From sequence record OQ703618.1: a DNA stretch of 64,000 nt. One strand, given 5' to 3'. The stretch's first letter is position 1; each line of letters starts with the position of its first letter. Position numbers and translations under genes: made by a program. The notes beneath the pieces are model-generated. The model had not been told where the DNA came from. It did not search any database and saw only the letters and a list, made by a program, of their open reading frames with translations. Of this stretch, positions 2,054 to 48,647 are shown one piece after another. This stretch comes from Escherichia phage GADS24.

Positions 2054-2314
2054 TTAAGCTTTACCGCCAGAAATAATTCCGAAGTTGTTAAAATCGTATC
2101 CAATATCGTCAACATCTACTTTAGGGCTTGCTACAACATAAGCAATTTCACTACGTTTTGCATAGGTGTTGATTTCTTTACCATCGCCACCTAAGAAAAA
2201 ATACCCATTACGTTTTAATGAGCCAAAGTCTTCCGCATCACCAATGAAAGCTTTAACTTTAAATTTAGGACCTTTGGCATCTGCTTCAGCGATAAATTCT
2301 TGATACATTTTCAT
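2054..2314 (-). CDS. internal protein (IP)-like, capsid-targeting N-terminus
   Basis: Begins MKMYQEFIAE; SD AAGGA overlaps the denV stop. Confidence 0.65.
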   Translation of the reverse strand: MKMYQEFIAEADAKGPKFKVKAFIGDAEDFGSLKRNGYFFLGGDGKEINTYAKRSEIAYVVASPKVDVDDIGYDFNNFGIISGGKA

Positions 2315-2320
2315 TTTTCC

Positions 2321-2734
2321 TTAGTAAATTGATTTACCATAGTATTTGTACCAAGTAGGACGTTGAGCAATTTTTTCATCTAAGCGTGCTTGACTTATCG
2401 CAATGGACGCTTCGGACGGGACATAATTATTACGAAATTCGGCAGGGATGTCGGAAATATCCTGGACAGTCGTGTCCTTGATTTTGAAACCACGTTTCAA
2501 GCATTCAGCGATTAGCTCGATTTGACGTAAACGTAAAAATTCGAGTTTGTCGTAAAAGAATGTTACGTGACCTGTGCCTAAGATAAATGTTGGAGAGATT
2601 TTAAAATCCTTTACACGTTTACCGTTTTGAACATGTTTACGGACTGCACCAAATACGCGTGGTAATTCACGATACTCAGCCATAAGATGTTGGTCGGTCA
2701 GTTCAGAAACAAGTGTTAAATTGATACGAGTCAT
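2321..2734 (-). CDS. denV: endonuclease V (pyrimidine-dimer DNA glycosylase)
   Basis: [12 protein letters not shown]...[19 protein letters not shown]...[10 protein letters not shown] matches T4 DenV; start placed at MTRINL ATG (2732-2734) with GGAGGA SD. Confidence 0.9.
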
Positions 2735-2792
2735 AATTTCCTCCAAGTAGTTGATGAATGTATAGTATCAAAGTCCTTGGAGGAAGTAAACA

Positions 2793-3074
2793 CTATTTTT
2801 CTGAAGCGCCTGAAATATATTTTTCAAGACGTTGTTTCATCAGCGAGCCGTTCTTAGCGATTTCTTCCGGTTTATCGCACATACGCAACAAGGCTTCAAG
2901 CTTAACGATATCGCTGGTACGTTCAAATTTGCGAGTATCTATCTTACTAGCAAGTTCAGAAATACGTGCTAATAGACTTTCGGCTTCAACCAAAGCTGCA
3001 CCTAGCTTAGTTGCAAATGTGTCAGTAGCTTCGTTAAGAATAGATTCTGATAAAAATTCACTATATGTTTTCAT
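2793..3074 (-). CDS. internal protein (IP)-like, capsid-targeting N-terminus
   Basis: Begins [10 protein letters not shown] at ATG 3072-3074, overlapping the e stop (ATGA); ORF track has a 5-codon upstream extension. Confidence 0.65.
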
Positions 3075-3559
3075 ATATACGCTTTCCAAGTTCCTGTTTT
3101 AAATGTTGAGATTACGCGTTTCGCGCGATTAGGTGTCTGACGATACCATTTAGATTGGGCTAGATTTACTGCCGCTTCATCCCAACGTTTCTGTTGAAGC
3201 ATACGAAGAGAATTAGTAAAACCAGCGACGCCTGCTACACCCATTTGGAAGACCATATTGACCAATGCACATCGACGAACCGCATCTAAAGAATCATATA
3301 CCGGTTTAAGTTTAGCATTACCCAAGATTCCGCGAACGGCTTTATCAACGTCTTCATTAAATAGCTTTTCAGCCTCATCAAGGGTAATTGTACCGTTGCA
3401 TTTACGTCCGATCATTCTGTCAAGTTCAGCTTTAGCTACGGCTAAAGACGGGTTCTTTGTTACTAAATGGCCTATGCCAATCGTCCAAAAGCCTTCAGTG
3501 TCTTTGTATAAAGACAGTCTAAGACCTTCGTCATTACGAAGCATTTCAAATATATTCAT
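3071..3559 (-). CDS. e: endolysin (T4 lysozyme, muramidase)
   Basis: [15 protein letters not shown]...TIGIGHL...TGTW near-identical to T4 lysozyme; start at MNIF ATG (3557-3559) with GGGAGG SD. Confidence 0.95.
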
Positions 3560-3596
3560 AATACCTCCCACGTTTATAGGAGGTATTTATTACTTA
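3560..3596 (-). promoter_or_regulatory. RBS-sequestering stem-loop upstream of e with TATAAACG/TATAAGTA late-promoter-like motifs
   Basis: 8-bp inverted repeat ATACCTCC (3561-3568) / GGAGGTAT (3578-3585) includes the e Shine-Dalgarno; minus strand carries TATAAACG in the loop. Confidence 0.45.
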
Positions 3597-4052
3597 TAGG
3601 AGGGTAGTGAGCACCTTATATAATGATTTGCCCATTACATATTCCCATTGAGAAGGTTTAATTAAAGCGAATGCATCAAATTCAGGAATCTGTCGTCCGT
3701 CTGGGAAGGTATGATAGGAATTACAAACACTGTTTCTGAATTGCTCGTGCTCTACAGGGATGGTATATAGGAACAGATGAATATTCTTATTGTCTGAGTA
3801 ATGATGTTCACCTAGGTCTTTCAGGAAGGCAGGGACATATTGTGTGAACCCAGTTTCTTCTTCGCATTCACGAATAGCGGCTTCAATAGGAGATTCACCG
3901 GGCTCGACACGACCTTTAGGAATATCCCACCGATGAGCTAAAGAACCTTTAGGACGAGAACCAGTTACACGCCCCATGAATAATTCTTTATCTTCTGTAA
4001 GGAAAATAATACCGGCCGATAGTTCTTTCACTTTATTTTTCTTACTCATCAT
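3594..4052 (-). CDS. nudE: Nudix hydrolase
   Basis: Nudix box GRVEPGESPIEAAIRECEEETG (Gx5Ex7REUxEExGU); immediately downstream of e on minus strand as in T4. Confidence 0.85.
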   Translation of the reverse strand: MMSKKNKVKELSAGIIFLTEDKELFMGRVTGSRPKGSLAHRWDIPKGRVEPGESPIEAAIRECEEETGFTQYVPAFLKDLGEHHYSDNKNIHLFLYTIPVEHEQFRNSVCNSYHTFPDGRQIPEFDAFALIKPSQWEYVMGKSLYKVLTTLL

Positions 4053-5759: not shown

Positions 5760-5826
5760 AATATTCTCCTCATGTTTTAATAGGACTACTATAACATAGT
5801 CCTATAATTGTGTAAACAGTTTTGTG
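5760..5826 (-). promoter_or_regulatory. PeSL-like early promoter/stem-loop cassette
   Basis: Minus strand: GTTTAC (rc 5812-5817), 18 nt, TATAGT; 8-bp perfect inverted repeat TAGGACTA (5781-5788)/TAGTCCTA (5798-5805); conserved RBS CATGAGGAGAATATTATG. Confidence 0.55.
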
Positions 5827-5829
5827 AAG

Positions 5830-6786
5830 TTATTTGAAAGGTTTTACCATATGGAAATTTTGTTTGAAACGTTTGACGTAATCGTCATGTCCTAAGCTTT
5901 GGTACATACTTACTACTTTGCTGTAGTTTTCCCAGGCATACTCACGGAACCAGCCGGAGGTTATGCTTGTGCAGACTTTTTCTAATGCCATCATAAAACT
6001 GGCTTCAGGGTTAATTTTAAAGTCATTAGGAATCTGAGAACGTTCTAATGCTAGTACACATGATTCTTCATATACACCGGCCAATTTGACCATTTCTGGT
6101 AATGATTCGAACTTCTCGCGTGAGGTCATGACTTCAGAACCGTCTTTCATATAAAATGTATACGCTGGCCGGTCTGTTAGTGCAATGGCTTCATGAATAG
6201 TATCATGGTCATATGTATAGATGTCATCTTTAAAGAACGCACTTTTAGAAGTGTCAAGAACTGGGTGAGCATAGTTCAAGGTTTCTTTCTGGCGTTTCAG
6301 CATAATTTCAGTAAGTTCATCGTTCAGTGTAACACCTTTACCACGAAGATACTGAATATGGTTCATAGTCTTTAAAAAGAATGGATTATTTTTCTTGAAA
6401 CGATGAGACATCTTAATTGCAAGACATATCTCAGGAGTTGCCCAATAAAACCCGGTCAAACGATCTTTAGTCAAATTTTTCTTGGCGTATTTTAAAAGGT
6501 CATAAGAAGACGTGAAATCTTCAGGAGTGAGTTCACCTACTAATTCGCGGACATTAGTGATTGCCGGAACAATATATGCTTCAAAATGAGTTTCGCGTCC
6601 ATTATGGAAGCATTTGAAAACTTGGACATCAGGGTTATCTTGATGAACATATACACCCATCATTTGATTTTTGAATGCATTCCAAGAACCTTGGTCTGCA
6701 ATAAAGTCCCAGTCACTATTTTTGATAGCGTTAGAATCAATAAGACCATGATAGTGAAGTGCACGAGAACCAATAACTAACATCAT
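5830..6786 (-). CDS. hypothetical protein with nucleotidyltransferase-fold-like N-terminus
   Basis: 318 aa; N-terminus LVIGSRALHYHGLIDSNAIKNSDWDFIAD resembles the hG[GS]...[DE]h[DE]h pol-beta NTase signature; GAGGAAAATATT-ATG RBS. Confidence 0.5.
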   Translation of the reverse strand: MMLVIGSRALHYHGLIDSNAIKNSDWDFIADQGSWNAFKNQMMGVYVHQDNPDVQVFKCFHNGRETHFEAYIVPAITNVRELVGELTPEDFTSSYDLLKYAKKNLTKDRLTGFYWATPEICLAIKMSHRFKKNNPFFLKTMNHIQYLRGKGVTLNDELTEIMLKRQKETLNYAHPVLDTSKSAFFKDDIYTYDHDTIHEAIALTDRPAYTFYMKDGSEVMTSREKFESLPEMVKLAGVYEESCVLALERSQIPNDFKINPEASFMMALEKVCTSITSGWFREYAWENYSKVVSMYQSLGHDDYVKRFKQNFHMVKPFK

Positions 6787-7066: not shown

Positions 7067-7116
7067 TTAATTTGATAGGACTACTATAACATAGCCCTAT
7101 CTTGTTGTAAACTGTT
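7067..7116 (-). promoter_or_regulatory. PeSL-like early promoter/stem-loop cassette
   Basis: TGATAGGACTACTATAACATAG core shared with cassette at 5781; GTTTAC (rc 7107-7112); imperfect stem TAGGACTA/TAGCCCTA. Confidence 0.5.
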
Positions 7117-7314
7117 TTAGCAAGAATAACTAGACGATACCCAGCCTTGAACAGTGATACTATTGTTGGATAATGAGATCGCGTTCTGGAGATTCAGACC
7201 TGCGTTATCTTCAATCCATAATGTAACTTCTTCGCGTTCTTCTGTTGCAATTTGGAACAGGTTTTCCAGAGCAGCTACTGCCGTACGTACAGCACAATCT
7301 AATTCACGAGACAT
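7117..7314 (-). CDS. small protein, GW[VI][SA]SS..C paralogue family member
   Basis: Ends ...QGWVSSSYSC; similar to the next two ORFs. Confidence 0.45.
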   Translation of the reverse strand: MSRELDCAVRTAVAALENLFQIATEEREEVTLWIEDNAGLNLQNAISLSNNSITVQGWVSSSYSC

Positions 7315-10147: not shown

Positions 10148-10210
10148 TTTGTTTTCCTCTTGATTTGATAGGACTACTATAACATAAACTTACTTAGATG
10201 TAAATTATTT
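10148..10210 (-). promoter_or_regulatory. PeSL-like cassette (degenerate stem)
   Basis: TGATAGGACTACTATAACATA core (10167-10187); ATTTAC -35-like (rc 10199-10204). Confidence 0.4.
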
Positions 10211-10358
10211 CAACGTCACCTTTAGCTGCTTTATAACCTTCAGCCCAAGATACAACAGAGTTTTTATCTGAGGATTCAAATTCAGGCATTGGACTTTCAC
10301 CAATATTCACACAGTATGTTTCTTCATTTTCATCGAACCAAATAATTAAAGTAGTCAT
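10194..10358 (-). CDS. hypothetical small protein (54 aa, below ORF-track cutoff)
   Basis: ATG 10356-10358 preceded by GAGGAG SD inside the 43-nt cassette shared with 47260..47302; translation MTTLIIWFDENEETYCVN... Confidence 0.35.
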   Translation of the reverse strand: MTTLIIWFDENEETYCVNIGESPMPEFESSDKNSVVSWAEGYKAAKGDVEIIYI

Positions 10359-10398
10359 TTTGTTTACTCCTCTGTAGTTGATAAGTCTATAGTATCAC
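10356..10398 (-). repeat. 43-nt cassette identical to 47260..47302 (-10/RBS/start-codon module)
   Basis: CATTTTGTTTACTCCTCTGTAGTTGATAAGTCTATAGTATCAC is identical at both loci; minus strand reads ...TGATACTATAGACTTATCAACTACAGAGGAGTAAACAAAATG. Confidence 0.8.
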
Positions 10399-13822: not shown

Positions 13823-13871
13823 TTGTTTTGATAGGACTACTATAACATAATCCTATCAGCATGTAAACTAC
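13823..13871 (-). promoter_or_regulatory. PeSL-like early promoter/stem-loop cassette
   Basis: GTTTAC (rc 13863-13868), 17 nt, TTATAG; TGATAGGACTACTATAACATAATCCTATC inverted repeat. Confidence 0.5.
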
Positions 13872-14159
13872 TTACAGAAGAGTTTTTGCAATAATTTTAA
13901 GCTGAGCTACAGAAATATGCTTAGCTTTAAACAGTGCAGTCTCTTCAGCCGGAGAGATAACAATAGTAGCGCCATCTTTCTTAGCAGACCATCCATCCCC
14001 TAAGTAAACAGTACCTTTTACTTCTTCGCCGTCAACCAGACTAATCATTGGTTTACCCTCACGTCCTTTATTTGCTTTAATAACTTCGGAAGTAAGGGTT
14101 GCTTCGGTCAGAGTAGAAACGTTAGCATCAGGTGATATAAATTCTTTATAGGTTTTCAT
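13872..14159 (-). CDS. internal protein I-like (IP with capsid-targeting N-terminus)
   Basis: Begins MKTYKEFIS; 95 aa like T4 IPI precursor; adjacent to 57B as ipI is in T4. Confidence 0.6.
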   Translation of the reverse strand: MKTYKEFISPDANVSTLTEATLTSEVIKANKGREGKPMISLVDGEEVKGTVYLGDGWSAKKDGATIVISPAEETALFKAKHISVAQLKIIAKTLL

Positions 14160-14236
14160 TTTATTTCCTTGAGGTCGTTTATTTGATAGGATGATAGTAA
14201 CACGCCATCATCCTTATGTAAACTGTTTTTGTGAAA
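14160..14236 (-). promoter_or_regulatory. PeSL-like early promoter/stem-loop cassette
   Basis: GTTTAC (rc 14218-14223), 17 nt spacer; inverted repeat GGATGATAG (14189-14197)/CCATCATCC (14204-14212). Confidence 0.45.
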
Positions 14237-26575: not shown

Positions 26576-27572
26576 TTCAAGTGTTATCTATCGTGCAATA
26601 GTTACATCAAAATTTAGAACAGAGAAAATGCTGAATTTTTATAATTCAGTTGGGGATGGAGATGATAAAAACTCCATTTATATTACGTTTGGACGTTCAG
26701 AGCCTTGGGCGTCAAATGAAAATGAGGTGGGCTTCGCCCCACCTTATCCTACAGATTCTGTTCTTGGTGTTACTGATATGTGGACCCATATGATGGGTAC
26801 AGTTAAAGTTTTACCTTCAATGTTAGATTCTGTTATTCCTAGACGTGATTGGGGAGATGTGCGATATCCAGACCCTTACACGTTTAGAATTAACGATATA
26901 GTCGCATGTAATACTGCTCCTTACAACGCGACAGAAGTTGGAGCTGGTTGGTTAATTTACCGTTGTTTAGATGTCCCTGACGTAGGGCTCTGTTCAATAG
27001 AATCTTTAGATAATAAAGATGAATGTCTTAAATTAGGCGGTAAATGGACTCCGTCTGTTCGTTCTATGTCTCCTCCTGAAGGCAGAGGCGATGCTAATGG
27101 GGTTATCGAAACCGGTGATGGATATATTTGGGAATATCTTTATGAGATTCCTGCCGATGTGTCAATTAACCGTTGCACTAATGAATATCTTGTAGTTCCA
27201 TGGCCGGAAGAAATTAAAGAAGACCCCACCCGTTGGGGATATGAAAATAACTTAACTTGGCAACAAGACGACTACGGCTTGATTTACCGTGTTAAAGCCA
27301 ATACGATGCGGTTTAAAGCATATTTTGATTCTGTTTATTTCCCTGAGGCAGCTTTGCCTGGTAACAAGGGTTTTAGACAGATATCAATTATCGCAAACCC
27401 GCTAGAAGCTAAGAAAAATCCAAATGACCCTAATGTTAAAGCAGAAAAGGATTATTACGACCCTAGAGACCTGCAGCGTCATTCTGGTGAAATGATTTAT
27501 ATGGAAAACCGACCACCTGTTATTATGGCAATGGACCAAACAGAAGAAATTAACATTTTGTTTATGTTTTAA
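26568..27572 (+). CDS. 8: baseplate wedge protein gp8
   Basis: 334 aa as T4 gp8. Confidence 0.9.
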   Translation: MNDSSVIYRAIVTSKFRTEKMLNFYNSVGDGDDKNSIYITFGRSEPWASNENEVGFAPPYPTDSVLGVTDMWTHMMGTVKVLPSMLDSVIPRRDWGDVRYPDPYTFRINDIVACNTAPYNATEVGAGWLIYRCLDVPDVGLCSIESLDNKDECLKLGGKWTPSVRSMSPPEGRGDANGVIETGDGYIWEYLYEIPADVSINRCTNEYLVVPWPEEIKEDPTRWGYENNLTWQQDDYGLIYRVKANTMRFKAYFDSVYFPEAALPGNKGFRQISIIANPLEAKKNPNDPNVKAEKDYYDPRDLQRHSGEMIYMENRPPVIMAMDQTEEINILFMF

Positions 27573-27575
27573 TTA

Positions 27576-27600
27576 GGGAGCCTTCGGGCTCCCATTTTTG
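27576..27600 (+). terminator. rho-independent terminator (GGGAGCC-TTCG-GGCTCCC + ATTTTTG)
   Basis: 7-bp GC stem with UUCG tetraloop then T5, just after gene 8. Confidence 0.7.
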
Positions 27601-27604
27601 TATC

Positions 27605-27612
27605 TATAAATA
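27605..27612 (+). promoter_or_regulatory. T4 late promoter TATAAATA (gene 9)
   Basis: Exact TATAAATA about 34 nt upstream of gene 9 ATG. Confidence 0.6.
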
Positions 27613-45371: not shown

Positions 45372-46940
45372 ATGACTACTATCAAAACTAAAGCTCAGCT
45401 CGTAGACAAATGGAAAGAACTGCTGGAAGGTGAAGGCCTGCCGGAAATCGCTAATAGCAAGCAGGCTATTATCGCTAAAATCTTCGAAAACCAGGAAAAA
45501 GATTTCGAAGTATCCCCTGAATATAAAGACGAGAAAATCGCTCAGGCATTTGGTTCTTTCTTGACCGAAGCTGAAATTGGTGGTGACCACGGTTATAATG
45601 CTCAGAACATCGCAGCAGGTCAAACCTCTGGTGCGGTAACCCAGATTGGGCCAGCAGTTATGGGTATGGTTCGTCGTGCTATTCCTAATCTGATCGCTTT
45701 TGATATTTGTGGTGTTCAGCCTATGAACAGCCCTACCGGTCAGGTATTTGCTCTCCGTGCAGTATATGGTAAAGACCCTATCGCTGCTGGCGCTAAAGAA
45801 GCTTTCCATCCGATGTATGCCCCAGACGCGATGTTCTCTGGTCAGGGTGCTGCTAAGAAATTCCCAGCTCTGGCTGCTGACACTACTACTGTTGTAGGTG
45901 ATATCTATACTCACTTCTTCCAAGAAACTGGTACTGTATATCTGCAAGCTTCTGCTATCGTAACACTTGATTCTGGTGCAACTGATGCAGCTAAATTAGA
46001 TGCAGAAGTTAAGAAACAAATGGAAGCTGGTGCACTGGTAGAAATCGCTGAAGGTATGGCTACTTCTATCGCTGAACTCCAGGAAGGTTTCAACGGTTCT
46101 ACCGATAACCCATGGAACGAAATGGGCTTCCGTATCGATAAACAAGTTATCGAAGCTAAATCTCGCCAGCTGAAAGCTGCTTACTCTATCGAATTAGCAC
46201 AAGACCTCCGTGCAGTACACGGTATGGATGCTGATGCTGAACTGAGCGGTATTCTTGCTACTGAAATTATGCTAGAAATCAACCGTGAAGTTGTTGATTG
46301 GATTAACTACTCGGCACAGGTTGGTAAATCTGGTATGACCCTGACTCCGGGTTCTAAAGCTGGCGTATTTGACTTCCAGGACCCGATTGATATCCGTGGT
46401 GCTCGTTGGGCCGGTGAAAGCTTTAAATCTCTGTTGTTCCAGATTGATAAAGAAGCAGTTGAAATTGCTCGTCAAACCGGTCGTGGTGAAGGTAACTTCA
46501 TTATCGCTTCCCGTAACGTAGTTAACGTACTGGCTTCAGTTGACACTGGTATTTCTTACGCTGCACAGGGTCTGGCTTCTGGTTTTAATACCGACACTAC
46601 TAAGTCCGTATTTGCCGGTGTACTTGGTGGTAAATACCGCGTATACATCGACCAGTATGCTAAACAGGATTACTTCACCGTTGGTTACAAAGGCGCTAAC
46701 GAAATGGATGCAGGTATTTACTATGCTCCTTACGTTGCACTTACCCCACTGCGTGGTTCCGATCCTAAGAACTTCCAGCCGGTAATGGGCTTTAAAACTC
46801 GTTACGGTATCGGTGTTAACCCGTTTGCTGAAAGTTCCCTGCAGGCTCCAGGTGCTCGCATCCAGTCCGGTATGCCGTCTATCCTGAACAGCCTTGGTAA
46901 GAACGCTTACTTCCGCCGTGTATATGTAAAAGGCATCTAA
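45372..46940 (+). CDS. 23: major capsid protein gp23
   Basis: MTTIKTKAQLVDKWKELLEGEGLPEIANSKQAIIAKIFENQEKDF... near-identical to T4 gp23. Confidence 0.97.
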   Translation: MTTIKTKAQLVDKWKELLEGEGLPEIANSKQAIIAKIFENQEKDFEVSPEYKDEKIAQAFGSFLTEAEIGGDHGYNAQNIAAGQTSGAVTQIGPAVMGMVRRAIPNLIAFDICGVQPMNSPTGQVFALRAVYGKDPIAAGAKEAFHPMYAPDAMFSGQGAAKKFPALAADTTTVVGDIYTHFFQETGTVYLQASAIVTLDSGATDAAKLDAEVKKQMEAGALVEIAEGMATSIAELQEGFNGSTDNPWNEMGFRIDKQVIEAKSRQLKAAYSIELAQDLRAVHGMDADAELSGILATEIMLEINREVVDWINYSAQVGKSGMTLTPGSKAGVFDFQDPIDIRGARWAGESFKSLLFQIDKEAVEIARQTGRGEGNFIIASRNVVNVLASVDTGISYAAQGLASGFNTDTTKSVFAGVLGGKYRVYIDQYAKQDYFTVGYKGANEMDAGIYYAPYVALTPLRGSDPKNFQPVMGFKTRYGIGVNPFAESSLQAPGARIQSGMPSILNSLGKNAYFRRVYVKGI

Positions 46941-46964
46941 TCTTAATTGATTAAATCTTATTTT

Positions 46965-46990
46965 GGGAGACTTCGGTCTCCCATTTTTGG
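46965..46990 (+). terminator. rho-independent terminator (GGGAGAC-TTCG-GTCTCCC + ATTTTTGGTTTT)
   Basis: 7-bp stem with UUCG tetraloop and T-run after gene 23. Confidence 0.75.
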
Positions 46991-46992
46991 TT

Positions 46993-47262
46993 TTATTTCT
47001 GTGCAATTTCAATGTAAGTTTTCAAAATATTTTGCCAATTAGGCATACCTTCTTGGACATATGCCGGAGAACCATCTTTGTTTTTGAATGACGCAAGTTT
47101 ATCAGTGGCCCAATAACCTTTAGCTCGAGCTTCGGAATCAACTTTCATCCATACTTTGTTGAAGGCATTACCATTAACTTTTGCACCATATTTTTCTACT
47201 AACTTAACTGCTTCAGCTTCCAGAACTTTTAAAGTATCTCGTAAGAAACGTGCTTTAGTCAT
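46993..47262 (-). CDS. hypothetical protein (89 aa) at the position occupied by segD in T4
   Basis: Minus-strand ORF between 23 and 24; not GIY-YIG; preceded by the 43-nt cassette shared with 10356..10398. Confidence 0.5.
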   Translation of the reverse strand: MTKARFLRDTLKVLEAEAVKLVEKYGAKVNGNAFNKVWMKVDSEARAKGYWATDKLASFKNKDGSPAYVQEGMPNWQNILKTYIEIAQK

Positions 47263-47322
47263 TTTGTTTACTCCTCTGTAGTTGATAAGTCTATAGTATC
47301 ACATACCAAATACGTTGTAAAC
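47260..47322 (-). promoter_or_regulatory. PeSL-like promoter cassette; 47260..47302 identical to 10356..10398
   Basis: GTTTAC (rc 47317-47322), 18 nt, TACTAT, then the identical -10/RBS/ATG module. Confidence 0.55.
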
Positions 47323-47328
47323 AATCTT

Positions 47329-47336
47329 TATAAATA
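47329..47336 (+). promoter_or_regulatory. T4 late promoter TATAAATA (gene 24)
   Basis: Exact TATAAATA 28 nt upstream of gene 24 ATG. Confidence 0.6.
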
Positions 47337-47363: not shown

Positions 47364-48647
47364 ATGAGTAAAATCCAAAAATTATTGCGTGAATCTACAA
47401 CGTCTACTAGCAACTCAGTTGGTCGCCCAAATCTCGTTGCTTTGACTCGCGCTACGACTAAATTAATATATTCTGACATTGTAGCAACACAAAGAACTAA
47501 TCAACCTGTTGCTGCTTTTTATGGTATCAAATATCTTAACCCAGATAACGAATTCACATTTAAAACTGGTGCTACTTATGCAGGCGAAGTTGGATATGTG
47601 GACCGAGAAAAAATTACTGAGCTCACAGAAGAATCAAAAGTCACACTAAATAAAGGCGATTTTTTCAAATATAATAATATCGTCTATAAAGTGTTAGAAG
47701 ATACACCATTTGCAGATATTCAAGAAAGTGATCTAGAATTAGCTCTTCAGATTGCAGTCGTTCATTTAAAGGTACGGTTATTTTCAGATGCAGCGGTAAC
47801 AAGCAAATTTGAAAGCTCTGATAGCGAAATTTCTGATGCAAGATTCCAGATTAATAAATGGCAAACTTCAGTCAAATCTCGTAAACTTAAAACCGGCCTC
47901 ACGGTTGAATTAGCGCAAGATTTGGAAGCGAATGGATTTGATGCCCCTAACTTCTTAGAAGATTTGCTTGCTACTGAAATGGCTGATGAAATTAATAAAG
48001 ATATCCTTCAGTCTTTAATTACTGTATCGAAACGTTATAAAGTTACTGGAATTACTGACACCGGATTTATTGACTTGAGCTATGCATCCGCTCCAGAAGC
48101 AGGTCGTTCATTATATCGAATGGTGTGTGAAATGGTATCACACATTCAAAAAGAGACAACTTATACTGCAACGTTTTGTGTAGCCTCAGCTCGTGCAGCT
48201 GCTATTCTTGCTGCTTCTGGTTGGTTAAAACATAAGCCAGAAGATGACAAGTATCTTTCACAAAATGCTTATGGATTCTTGGCAAATGGATTACCTCTTT
48301 ACTGCGATACCAACAGTCCGTTAGATTATGTTATTGTGGGTGTTGTAGAAAATATCGGCGAAAAAGAAATTGTAGGGTCCATCTTTTATGCTCCATACAC
48401 TGAAGGAGTAGATTTAGATGACCCGGAACATGTTGGTGCATTTAAAGTTGTAGTTGATCCAGAAAGCTTGCAACCGTCTATCGGATTATTGGTTAGATAT
48501 GCTTTATCAGCAAATCCTTACACAGTAGCAAAAGACGAAAAAGAAGCGAGAATAATTGATGGTGGGGACATGGATAAAATGGCAGGACGTTCAGACTTGT
48601 CTGTTTTACTCGGTGTTAAATTGCCTAAAATTATTATAGATGAATAA
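47364..48647 (+). CDS. 24: capsid vertex protein gp24
   Basis: 427 aa, paralogue of gp23. Confidence 0.9.
   Translation: MSKIQKLLRESTTSTSNSVGRPNLVALTRATTKLIYSDIVATQRTNQPVAAFYGIKYLNPDNEFTFKTGATYAGEVGYVDREKITELTEESKVTLNKGDFFKYNNIVYKVLEDTPFADIQESDLELALQIAVVHLKVRLFSDAAVTSKFESSDSEISDARFQINKWQTSVKSRKLKTGLTVELAQDLEANGFDAPNFLEDLLATEMADEINKDILQSLITVSKRYKVTGITDTGFIDLSYASAPEAGRSLYRMVCEMVSHIQKETTYTATFCVASARAAAILAASGWLKHKPEDDKYLSQNAYGFLANGLPLYCDTNSPLDYVIVGVVENIGEKEIVGSIFYAPYTEGVDLDDPEHVGAFKVVVDPESLQPSIGLLVRYALSANPYTVAKDEKEARIIDGGDMDKMAGRSDLSVLLGVKLPKIIIDE

Follow-up and report, generated by a model that had tools for sequence, protein, structure and literature searches.

Here, we describe the region between capsid genes 23 and 24 in a 64,000-nucleotide stretch of DNA, hereafter referred to as the window, from Escherichia phage GADS24 (OQ703618.1), a T-even phage that resembles RB69 and belongs to the genus Mosigvirus. 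Segment 45300-48700 of the window aligns over its full length, with identities of 98.5-99.3%, to the best 30 matching phage records, for example NHEP11 and PhAPEC2, the genus among these 30 having been checked for PhAPEC2. Gene 23 is 99% identical to genes annotated as major capsid protein in Mosigvirus records, and its terminator hairpin has equivalents in T4, T2, LF82-5, VR5 and GEP001. An open reading frame (ORF) of 89 codons lies between the two capsid genes, on the opposite strand. The features of the locus, and those of a second place in the window to which it is linked by a repeat, are the following.

45372-46940, plus strand: major capsid gene 23, serving as left homology arm for a variable slot (from the list of ORFs)
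46964-46983, plus strand: GGGAGACTTCGGTCTCCC plus a T-run, the hairpin of the intrinsic gene 23 terminator, which marks the left edge of the slot (terminator scan)
46993-47262, minus strand: 89-aa ORF with an ATG start, family phrog_6003, Mosigvirus "M" allele (from the list of ORFs)
47256-47302, minus strand: 47-nt block comprising a TG-extended -10 element, 5'UTR, GAGGAG ribosome-binding site and ATGACT, repeated exactly at 10352-10398
47271-47276, minus strand: ribosome-binding site (RBS) GAGGAG of the 89-aa ORF, 8 nt upstream of its ATG (read from the sequence)
47321..47293, minus strand: predicted T4-type early (sigma-70) promoter of the 89-aa ORF, TTTACA-17-TGaTACTAT (promoter scan)
47329-47336, plus strand: TATAAATA, the box of the gene 24 late promoter, with the ATG of gp24 28 nt downstream (read from the sequence)
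47364-48647, plus strand: gene 24, capsid vertex protein, the right homology arm (from the list of ORFs)
10352-10398, minus strand: second copy of the 47-nt block, an exact match, preceding an unrelated 54-aa ORF
10194-10358, minus strand: this 54-aa ORF, phrog_5461, unrelated to the 89-aa ORF, behind the second copy of the block

The initial annotation of the window had placed a duplicated cassette upstream of the 89-aa ORF and had noted that the ORF adjoins the late promoter of gene 24. Both statements are confirmed. The stretch 47256-47302 is identical to 10352-10398, a match that was obtained in none of 100 shuffles, and the predicted early promoter stands back-to-back with TATAAATA at 47329-47336, its -35 hexamer being 7 nt from the late promoter box. 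This box is kept in all 23-24 gaps compared. The putative early promoter has the -35 hexamer, the 17-nt spacer and the TG-extended -10 element of its class (TTTACA-17-TACTAT with TG), from which we infer promoter activity and early timing for the ORF. The 47-nt block occurs in 1 or 2 copies per genome in 144 Mosigvirus records, at 231 places in total. Since approximately 87 of these 144 records have both copies, the duplication is polymorphic within the genus.

T4-type phages have ORFan cassettes, termed PeSL (promoter-early stem-loop), in which early-promoter blocks are repeated (Arbiol et al. 2010, PMC2839356; Comeau et al. 2014, PMC4122927). The promoter of the 89-aa ORF matches the PST/T4 PeSL consensus TTTACW-N17-TAYWAT (PMC4122927). 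Like a PeSL element, the locus has a repeated early-promoter block in front of a small uncharacterised gene, with an exact 47-nt repeat elsewhere in the genome, so that the block borders variable ORFs at both 10352-10398 and 47256-47302; furthermore, a recombination junction falls within the block in phage LF82-5, as described below. However, the stem-loop that should be joined to the promoter is missing. The arms TAGGACTA...TAGTCCTA are absent from the copy at 47277-47328, which gives only a 62% alignment to the palindromic repeat family of the window, and the 47256-47302 copy has no palindromic stem-loop, unlike the repeats at 5772, 7067, 10160, 13823 and 14178. The cassette also differs from PeSL elements in its setting, which is the conserved structural core and not a hyperplastic region.

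The palindromic repeats themselves, of 52-66 nt, are located at 5772-5823, 7067-7118, 10160-10211, 13823-13874 and 14178-14229. They contain an early promoter, GTTTACA ... TATAGT, in the palindrome TAGGACTA-N8-TAGTCCTA and, standing before small minus-strand ORFs, look like PeSL elements. Another repeated block, of 38 nt and ending in ...GTTTTCAT, is found at 1615-1652, 1955-1992, 2279-2316, 3039-3076 and 14124-14161. It matches 5' ends (ATGAAAAC...) that are alike among several small minus-strand ORFs, suggesting that these ORFs are a paralogous family. The region of the gene 23 terminator, 46947-46996, has 78% identity to 27558-27607, another hairpin terminator of the window (GGGAGCCTTCGGGCTCCC).

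Distribution of the gene among phages

A tblastn search found the ORF family in 239 GenBank phage records, nearly all of them from Escherichia or Shigella phages. About 120 of the copies are at least 80% identical to that of the window (M allele), and 119 are 30-38% identical. The genera represented are Mosigvirus, Dhakavirus, Gaprivervirus and at least one Tequatrovirus. In every T-even genome inspected, namely PhAPEC2, Gaprivervirus VR20, Dhakavirus VR5, 04086 and IME08, Tequatrovirus GEP001 and two metagenomic T4-like contigs, the ORF occupies the 23-24 gap and runs opposite to both capsid genes. Dozens of Mosigvirus records encode a protein that is 100% identical, at the same position and on the same strand, and the Dhakavirus and Gaprivervirus copies occupy this position with 30-38% identity. 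Several deposited genes are the same gene as the ORF of the window: LD34_gp220 of PhAPEC2, RB69ORF188c together with RB69ORF189c, the VR7 gp190-like genes of VR5 and VR20, and orf166 of IME08. The gene is thus already known, being catalogued and annotated as "hypothetical protein" in more than 200 phage genomes; our search of the literature found no paper that mentions it. The initial annotation had counted it as a refutation of its reading if the ORF should prove to be a conserved known T-even gene at this position. Essentially this is the case, with phrog_6003, 239 records, and the same position and strand wherever these were inspected. The part of that reading which survives the family search is the lack of any match to GIY-YIG or SegD proteins, but the protein belongs to a catalogued family and is not a one-off.

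Some copies are broken. In the RB69 reference (NC_004928, locus positions 6292-6532), two frameshifts, +1 and -1, divide the ORF into RB69ORF188c (41 aa) and RB69ORF189c (29 aa), and it is locally scrambled near codons 17-23; these frameshifts could reflect a real pseudogene or errors in an old sequence. Frameshift fragment proteins are annotated in phage mogra, and phage 310Ecol104PP has a truncated D-type product of 64 aa. These broken copies indicate that the gene is dispensable in at least some isolates.

Beyond the T-even phages, a divergent branch of the family, with 33-39% identity, is present in rV5-like phages of about 140-150 kb, represented by ABPH49, which is labelled an Acinetobacter phage, and by three metagenomic contigs. 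There, the family member lies within arrays of small genes on the same strand. No conserved partner gene was found in the rV5-like contexts, where only the usual synteny among related contigs is seen. The family forms 26 clusters among 5.8 billion proteins. A profile search of 1.84 billion representatives gave nine matches, two of which are long repeat proteins, one of 1347 aa (a Big_2/LRR surface protein) and one of 3916 aa (Ig-like filamin and YtkA-type), each matched in many weak stretches. These two were judged spurious because they look all-beta and the aligned part of the query is helical.

Occupancy of the 23-24 gap and exchange between genera

In T4, the 23-24 gap holds segD, as stated in the initial annotation; segD is 672 bp long, lies on the minus strand and occupies the same place as the 89-aa ORF. 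A review from 2010 describes segD as inserted at 23/24 in antisense orientation and reports that no segD-specific promoter is identifiable (PMC2988022). Across T-even phages, the slot has four states: it is empty, or it holds segD alone, the ORF alone (M, D or G allele), or the ORF followed by segD. The empty gap is about 83 bp long, with the terminator and the late promoter only. It was found in T2 and in all 17 Tequatrovirus rows sampled that span 1361 bp, against 1701 bp in the query, and likewise in the sampled phages of Gelderlandvirus, Winklervirus and Moonvirus and in sampled Klebsiella T4-likes, with S16, X20 and Merlin as named examples. The second state, segD alone, is that of T4, Gelderlandvirus CGG4-1 and Winklervirus Vettismorki. 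The third, the ORF alone, comprises the M allele in Mosigvirus, the D allele in Dhakavirus and in GEP001, and the G allele in Gaprivervirus; approximately 200 records have the ORF without segD. In the fourth state, a D-allele ORF is followed 3-7 nt further on by a SegD orthologue, also on the minus strand, and only one promoter-like site lies upstream of the pair. Its members are Dhakavirus IME08, Mosigvirus LF82-5 and, from pairs of coordinates, Dhakavirus IME341 and 04086 as well as AV116, ATK47 and JK45. The SegD orthologue of LF82-5 is 57% identical to T4 SegD and contains the GIY-YIG motif region. Proteins at least 80% identical to it are encoded in 38 records, and proteins at least 95% identical in 33, for example AV116 and JK45, the genus of these 33 having been checked only for LF82-5.

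Among the genomes sampled, an empty gap is seen more often than any other state, and segD is a sporadic, minority insert. The empty gaps of T2, of other Tequatrovirus and of further genera imply that segD itself is a sporadic mobile insert and that T4 is not the reference state, which corrects a T4-centred view of the locus. The initial annotation had presented the ORF as a cargo swap inside an otherwise invariant capsid operon, to be examined by comparing the 23-24 region across T-even genomes. This comparison bears out a variable cargo slot whose content here is unrelated to SegD. However, segD turns out to be the minority insert in a sample where the gap of about 83 bp is widespread, and the ORF is a normal resident in three genera. 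The ORF and segD coexist in about 38 genomes, and so they are not alternatives. Moreover, since the contents of the slot vary, the operon is not otherwise invariant at 23-24, which is a known kind of hot spot.

The segD gene of T4 resembles the ORF in its slot, in its minus-strand orientation against the late capsid genes, and in an early-type promoter that abuts the gene 24 late promoter. In all occupied gaps, including those with segD only, a few nucleotides separate the gene 24 late promoter from a TGTAAAC box, which the empty gap of T2 lacks. This box is the -35 element of the predicted minus-strand early promoter. Upstream of T4 segD (NC_000866, locus positions 7254-7282, minus strand), we noticed TTTACA-17-TGaTATTAT, a 10/12 match to an early promoter. 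This match and the promoter of the ORF in the window have equivalent places relative to the gene 24 late promoter. The two genes differ in their products, which are unrelated, SegD having 223 aa with a GIY-YIG domain and the ORF 89 aa without one, and in their nature, segD being a selfish nuclease gene and the ORF not. Two further observations were made on neighbouring genes. Phage 04086 (OR842557) has an unannotated SegD orthologue, 81% identical to that of LF82-5, at locus positions ~3271-3939, and the annotation of its gene 23 is truncated. In Gaprivervirus, Dhakavirus, Gelderlandvirus and two metagenomic T4-likes, two tandem copies of gene 24 lie 3' of the slot, and Mosigvirus and T4 have one.

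The sequence of LF82-5 illustrates cleanly how, in nature, about 1 kb of DNA with segD and the ORF has crossed genera. This genome is 96-100% identical to the window up to approximately 40 nt before the stop codon of gene 23, and again from the early promoter on. Between these points, a patch of about 1,050 bp (locus positions ~2100-3150), which runs from the end of gene 23 through the terminator and segD to the RBS of the ORF, has only 36-66% identity or gapped alignment to the window. It is mostly 82-100% identical to Dhakavirus IME08, with about 70% at the 3' end of segD. The alignments thus indicate the transfer of segD and the ORF from a Dhakavirus-like donor into a Mosigvirus backbone. 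The right junction of the patch is at the CTCCTC of the RBS, within the repeated 47-nt block. An analogous D-allele patch is found in GEP001, a Tequatrovirus; one of its junctions falls within the final ~30 nt of gene 23, the other in the leader of gene 24. Crossovers are therefore located in the last ~30-40 nt of gene 23 on one side and, on the other, either in the block of promoter and RBS or in the leader of gene 24. From these two patches, it can be concluded that the contents of the slot have been swapped between genera by homologous recombination in the capsid genes and the promoter block. Where segD is present, the adjoining ORF allele appears to move along with it. Seg endonucleases are described as co-converting flanking markers (PMC2988022), and PeSL-mediated shuffling has also been described (PMC4122927); the joint transfer and the crossovers in the promoter block fit both.

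Joint transfer also raises the question of whether the ORF is part of the homing system, either as a degenerate endonuclease remnant or as a helper or immunity factor of SegD, the ORF and segD then being one two-gene mobile element. The tight arrangement of the pair in about 38 records, 3-7 nt apart on one strand with a single promoter, speaks for this, as do the joint move of the pair into the Mosigvirus backbone and the single early -35 box common to all occupied gaps, segD-only gaps included. However, co-conversion of flanking markers predicts joint transfer for any neighbouring gene. SegD occurs in T4, CGG4-1 and Vettismorki without the ORF, no remnant of which was detected in the gaps of these phages or of T2, and the ORF is found on its own, with no segD, in about 200 records and, in rV5-like phages, with no endonuclease close by. 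The sequences point the same way. As the initial annotation had it, the product of 46993-47262 is a minus-strand-encoded protein of 89 aa without GIY-YIG. Pfam gave no GIY-YIG match and no DNA-binding domain for the ORF or for 20 family members, and hhalign of the family profile against T4 SegD, which covered all its domains including the C-terminal DNA-binding part, gave a probability of 1.5% over 23 columns. We therefore consider a homing-related origin or function of the ORF to be unlikely.

The 89-aa protein

The 89-aa ORF is a real gene and not a chance ORF. Its product matches the phrog_6003 HMM with an E-value of 2.1e-45, residues 1-89 aligning to profile positions 1-90, and this profile is also matched by the D allele and by the rV5-like homologue. 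The homologues have 84-93 aa, and the reading frame is kept down to 30% identity. Among closely related D alleles, the dN/dS ratio (Nei-Gojobori) is 0.06-0.14 at dS values of 0.2-0.6, a range taken from alleles with unsaturated dS, and it is 0.16 between the M allele and a metagenomic allele. These ratios show purifying selection on the protein.

The protein is basic, with a pI of 9.6 and a mass of 10.1 kDa. Residues M1, K3, F6, G31, N32, N35 and Q70 are invariant in the family, and N30, L14, A45 and S57 are nearly so. A first AlphaFold2 model, from 7 sequences, was poor (pLDDT 65); with an alignment of 20 sequences, AlphaFold2 gave a pLDDT of 94 and a pTM of 0.80. The predicted topology is alpha-alpha-beta-hairpin-alpha, and it consists of helices 3-25 and 31-48, a β-hairpin formed by strands 52-60 and 66-70, and helix 76-88.

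Searches by sequence and by structure found no specific relatives outside this small phage family. In PHROGs, phrog_6003 is the sole family, apart from a very weak match to an internal virion protein (E 0.09). Sequence searches of the PDB, with the single sequence and with the profile, gave nothing, and Foldseek against the PDB gave no match at E <= 0.001; against BFVD, its only match was a member of the same family (TM 0.87). NCBIfam and PADLOC gave no significant match; these are curated libraries with most anti-defence proteins outside their coverage, so that the result is compatible with such a function. A sub-threshold Pfam match to DUF4859 was dismissed as noise, only 2 of 20 family members having it.

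A different reading places the function in the divergent early promoter and its transcript, which would, for example, damp read-through or early expression of genes 23 and 24, with the ORF being incidental. The geometry is suitable, since 7 nt separate the early promoter from the late promoter box of gene 24, the transcript would be antisense and directed at the gene 23 3' end, and, read along the minus strand, the terminator hairpin lacks a U-run. Such a role would nevertheless leave unexplained the strong purifying selection on the protein sequence, the confident fold prediction, the conservation of the protein at 30% identity where the DNA has diverged beyond alignment, and the homologues in unrelated genomic contexts. 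The signal of RNA structure is absent as well: the ORF has no match in Rfam and its RNA folding is unremarkable (z = -1.1), and it was rejected as an RNA element on these grounds. We regard a functional antisense transcript with an incidental ORF as very unlikely.

Proposed role

The explanation that we favour, and hold to be reasonably probable as a whole, is that of an early-gene cassette encoding a dispensable binder protein, with segD as an independent selfish co-occupant of the slot. The unit flanked by the terminator of gene 23 and the late promoter of gene 24 is a self-contained cassette, with a T4-type early promoter, a strong RBS and an 89-codon gene, which would be transcribed by the host RNA polymerase immediately after infection. 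The frameshifted copies of RB69 and mogra and the truncated product of 310Ecol104PP suggest that the gene is dispensable. The product, a predicted 10-kDa basic bundle of three helices with a β-hairpin, most likely binds a macromolecule of the host or of a competitor and does not act in catalysis. Its likely interaction site is the conserved polar patch N30-G31-N32, N35 and Q70. This patch is invariant (N30 nearly so) together with K3 and F6, and a catalytic-looking constellation is absent. Where segD lies downstream of the ORF, it would be co-transcribed from the ORF promoter and, when spreading, drag the ORF allele with it.

A binder for host takeover or counter-defence is our best guess for the protein. 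It is based on how small the protein is, on the absence of catalytic motifs, on the early promoter and on the phylogenetic pattern, and it is also the generic expectation for a T-even ORFan. The family is common to unrelated coliphage lineages, and those T4-likes of Klebsiella, Salmonella, Serratia and Citrobacter that were sampled lack it, a distribution that would fit a host-specific takeover or counter-defence factor. This argument is weakened by the label of ABPH49 as an Acinetobacter phage and by the metagenomic contigs, which have no assigned hosts. Several small early proteins of T4, for example AsiA, Arn and Dmd, act non-enzymatically by binding to host targets. The product of the ORF resembles them in its size class of approximately 60-90 aa, probable early expression, no catalytic motifs and probable dispensability in the laboratory; however, the PDB and BFVD searches showed it to resemble none of them in sequence or fold. 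A more far-reaching proposal, in which phrog_6003 would be an unrecognised takeover or counter-defence effector specific to E. coli and Shigella, with a fold of its own, traded between T-even and rV5-like phages, and in which the 23-24 slot would be a site of hitch-hiking with SegD, appears rather doubtful to us.

Least likely of all, and very improbable, is that the protein serves the capsid, whether by chaperoning its assembly, by decorating it or by partnering gp23 or gp24, because its 23/24 position in several genera and the marginal PHROG match to an internal virion protein are outweighed by a gene that lies on the opposite strand with an early and not a late promoter, is absent from the sampled T4-likes of other genera with homologous gp23 and gp24, is broken in some isolates and has rV5-like homologues among small early-type genes, not head genes.

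With the early cassette and its putative binder protein as the preferred reading, the locus is a case of ordinary T-even genome plasticity with an uncharacterised ORFan. Its value as a discovery is small, since it is well described that conserved genes of T-even phages are interrupted by homing-endonuclease inserts and by small early genes that vary. The protein, of approximately 10 kDa, predicted to be well folded and under purifying selection, is a tractable candidate for screens of coliphage accessory genes. One metagenomic homologue of 90 aa, 61% identical, has been named "NADPH-dependent curcumin reductase CurA" by JGI, which is evidently a mis-annotation.
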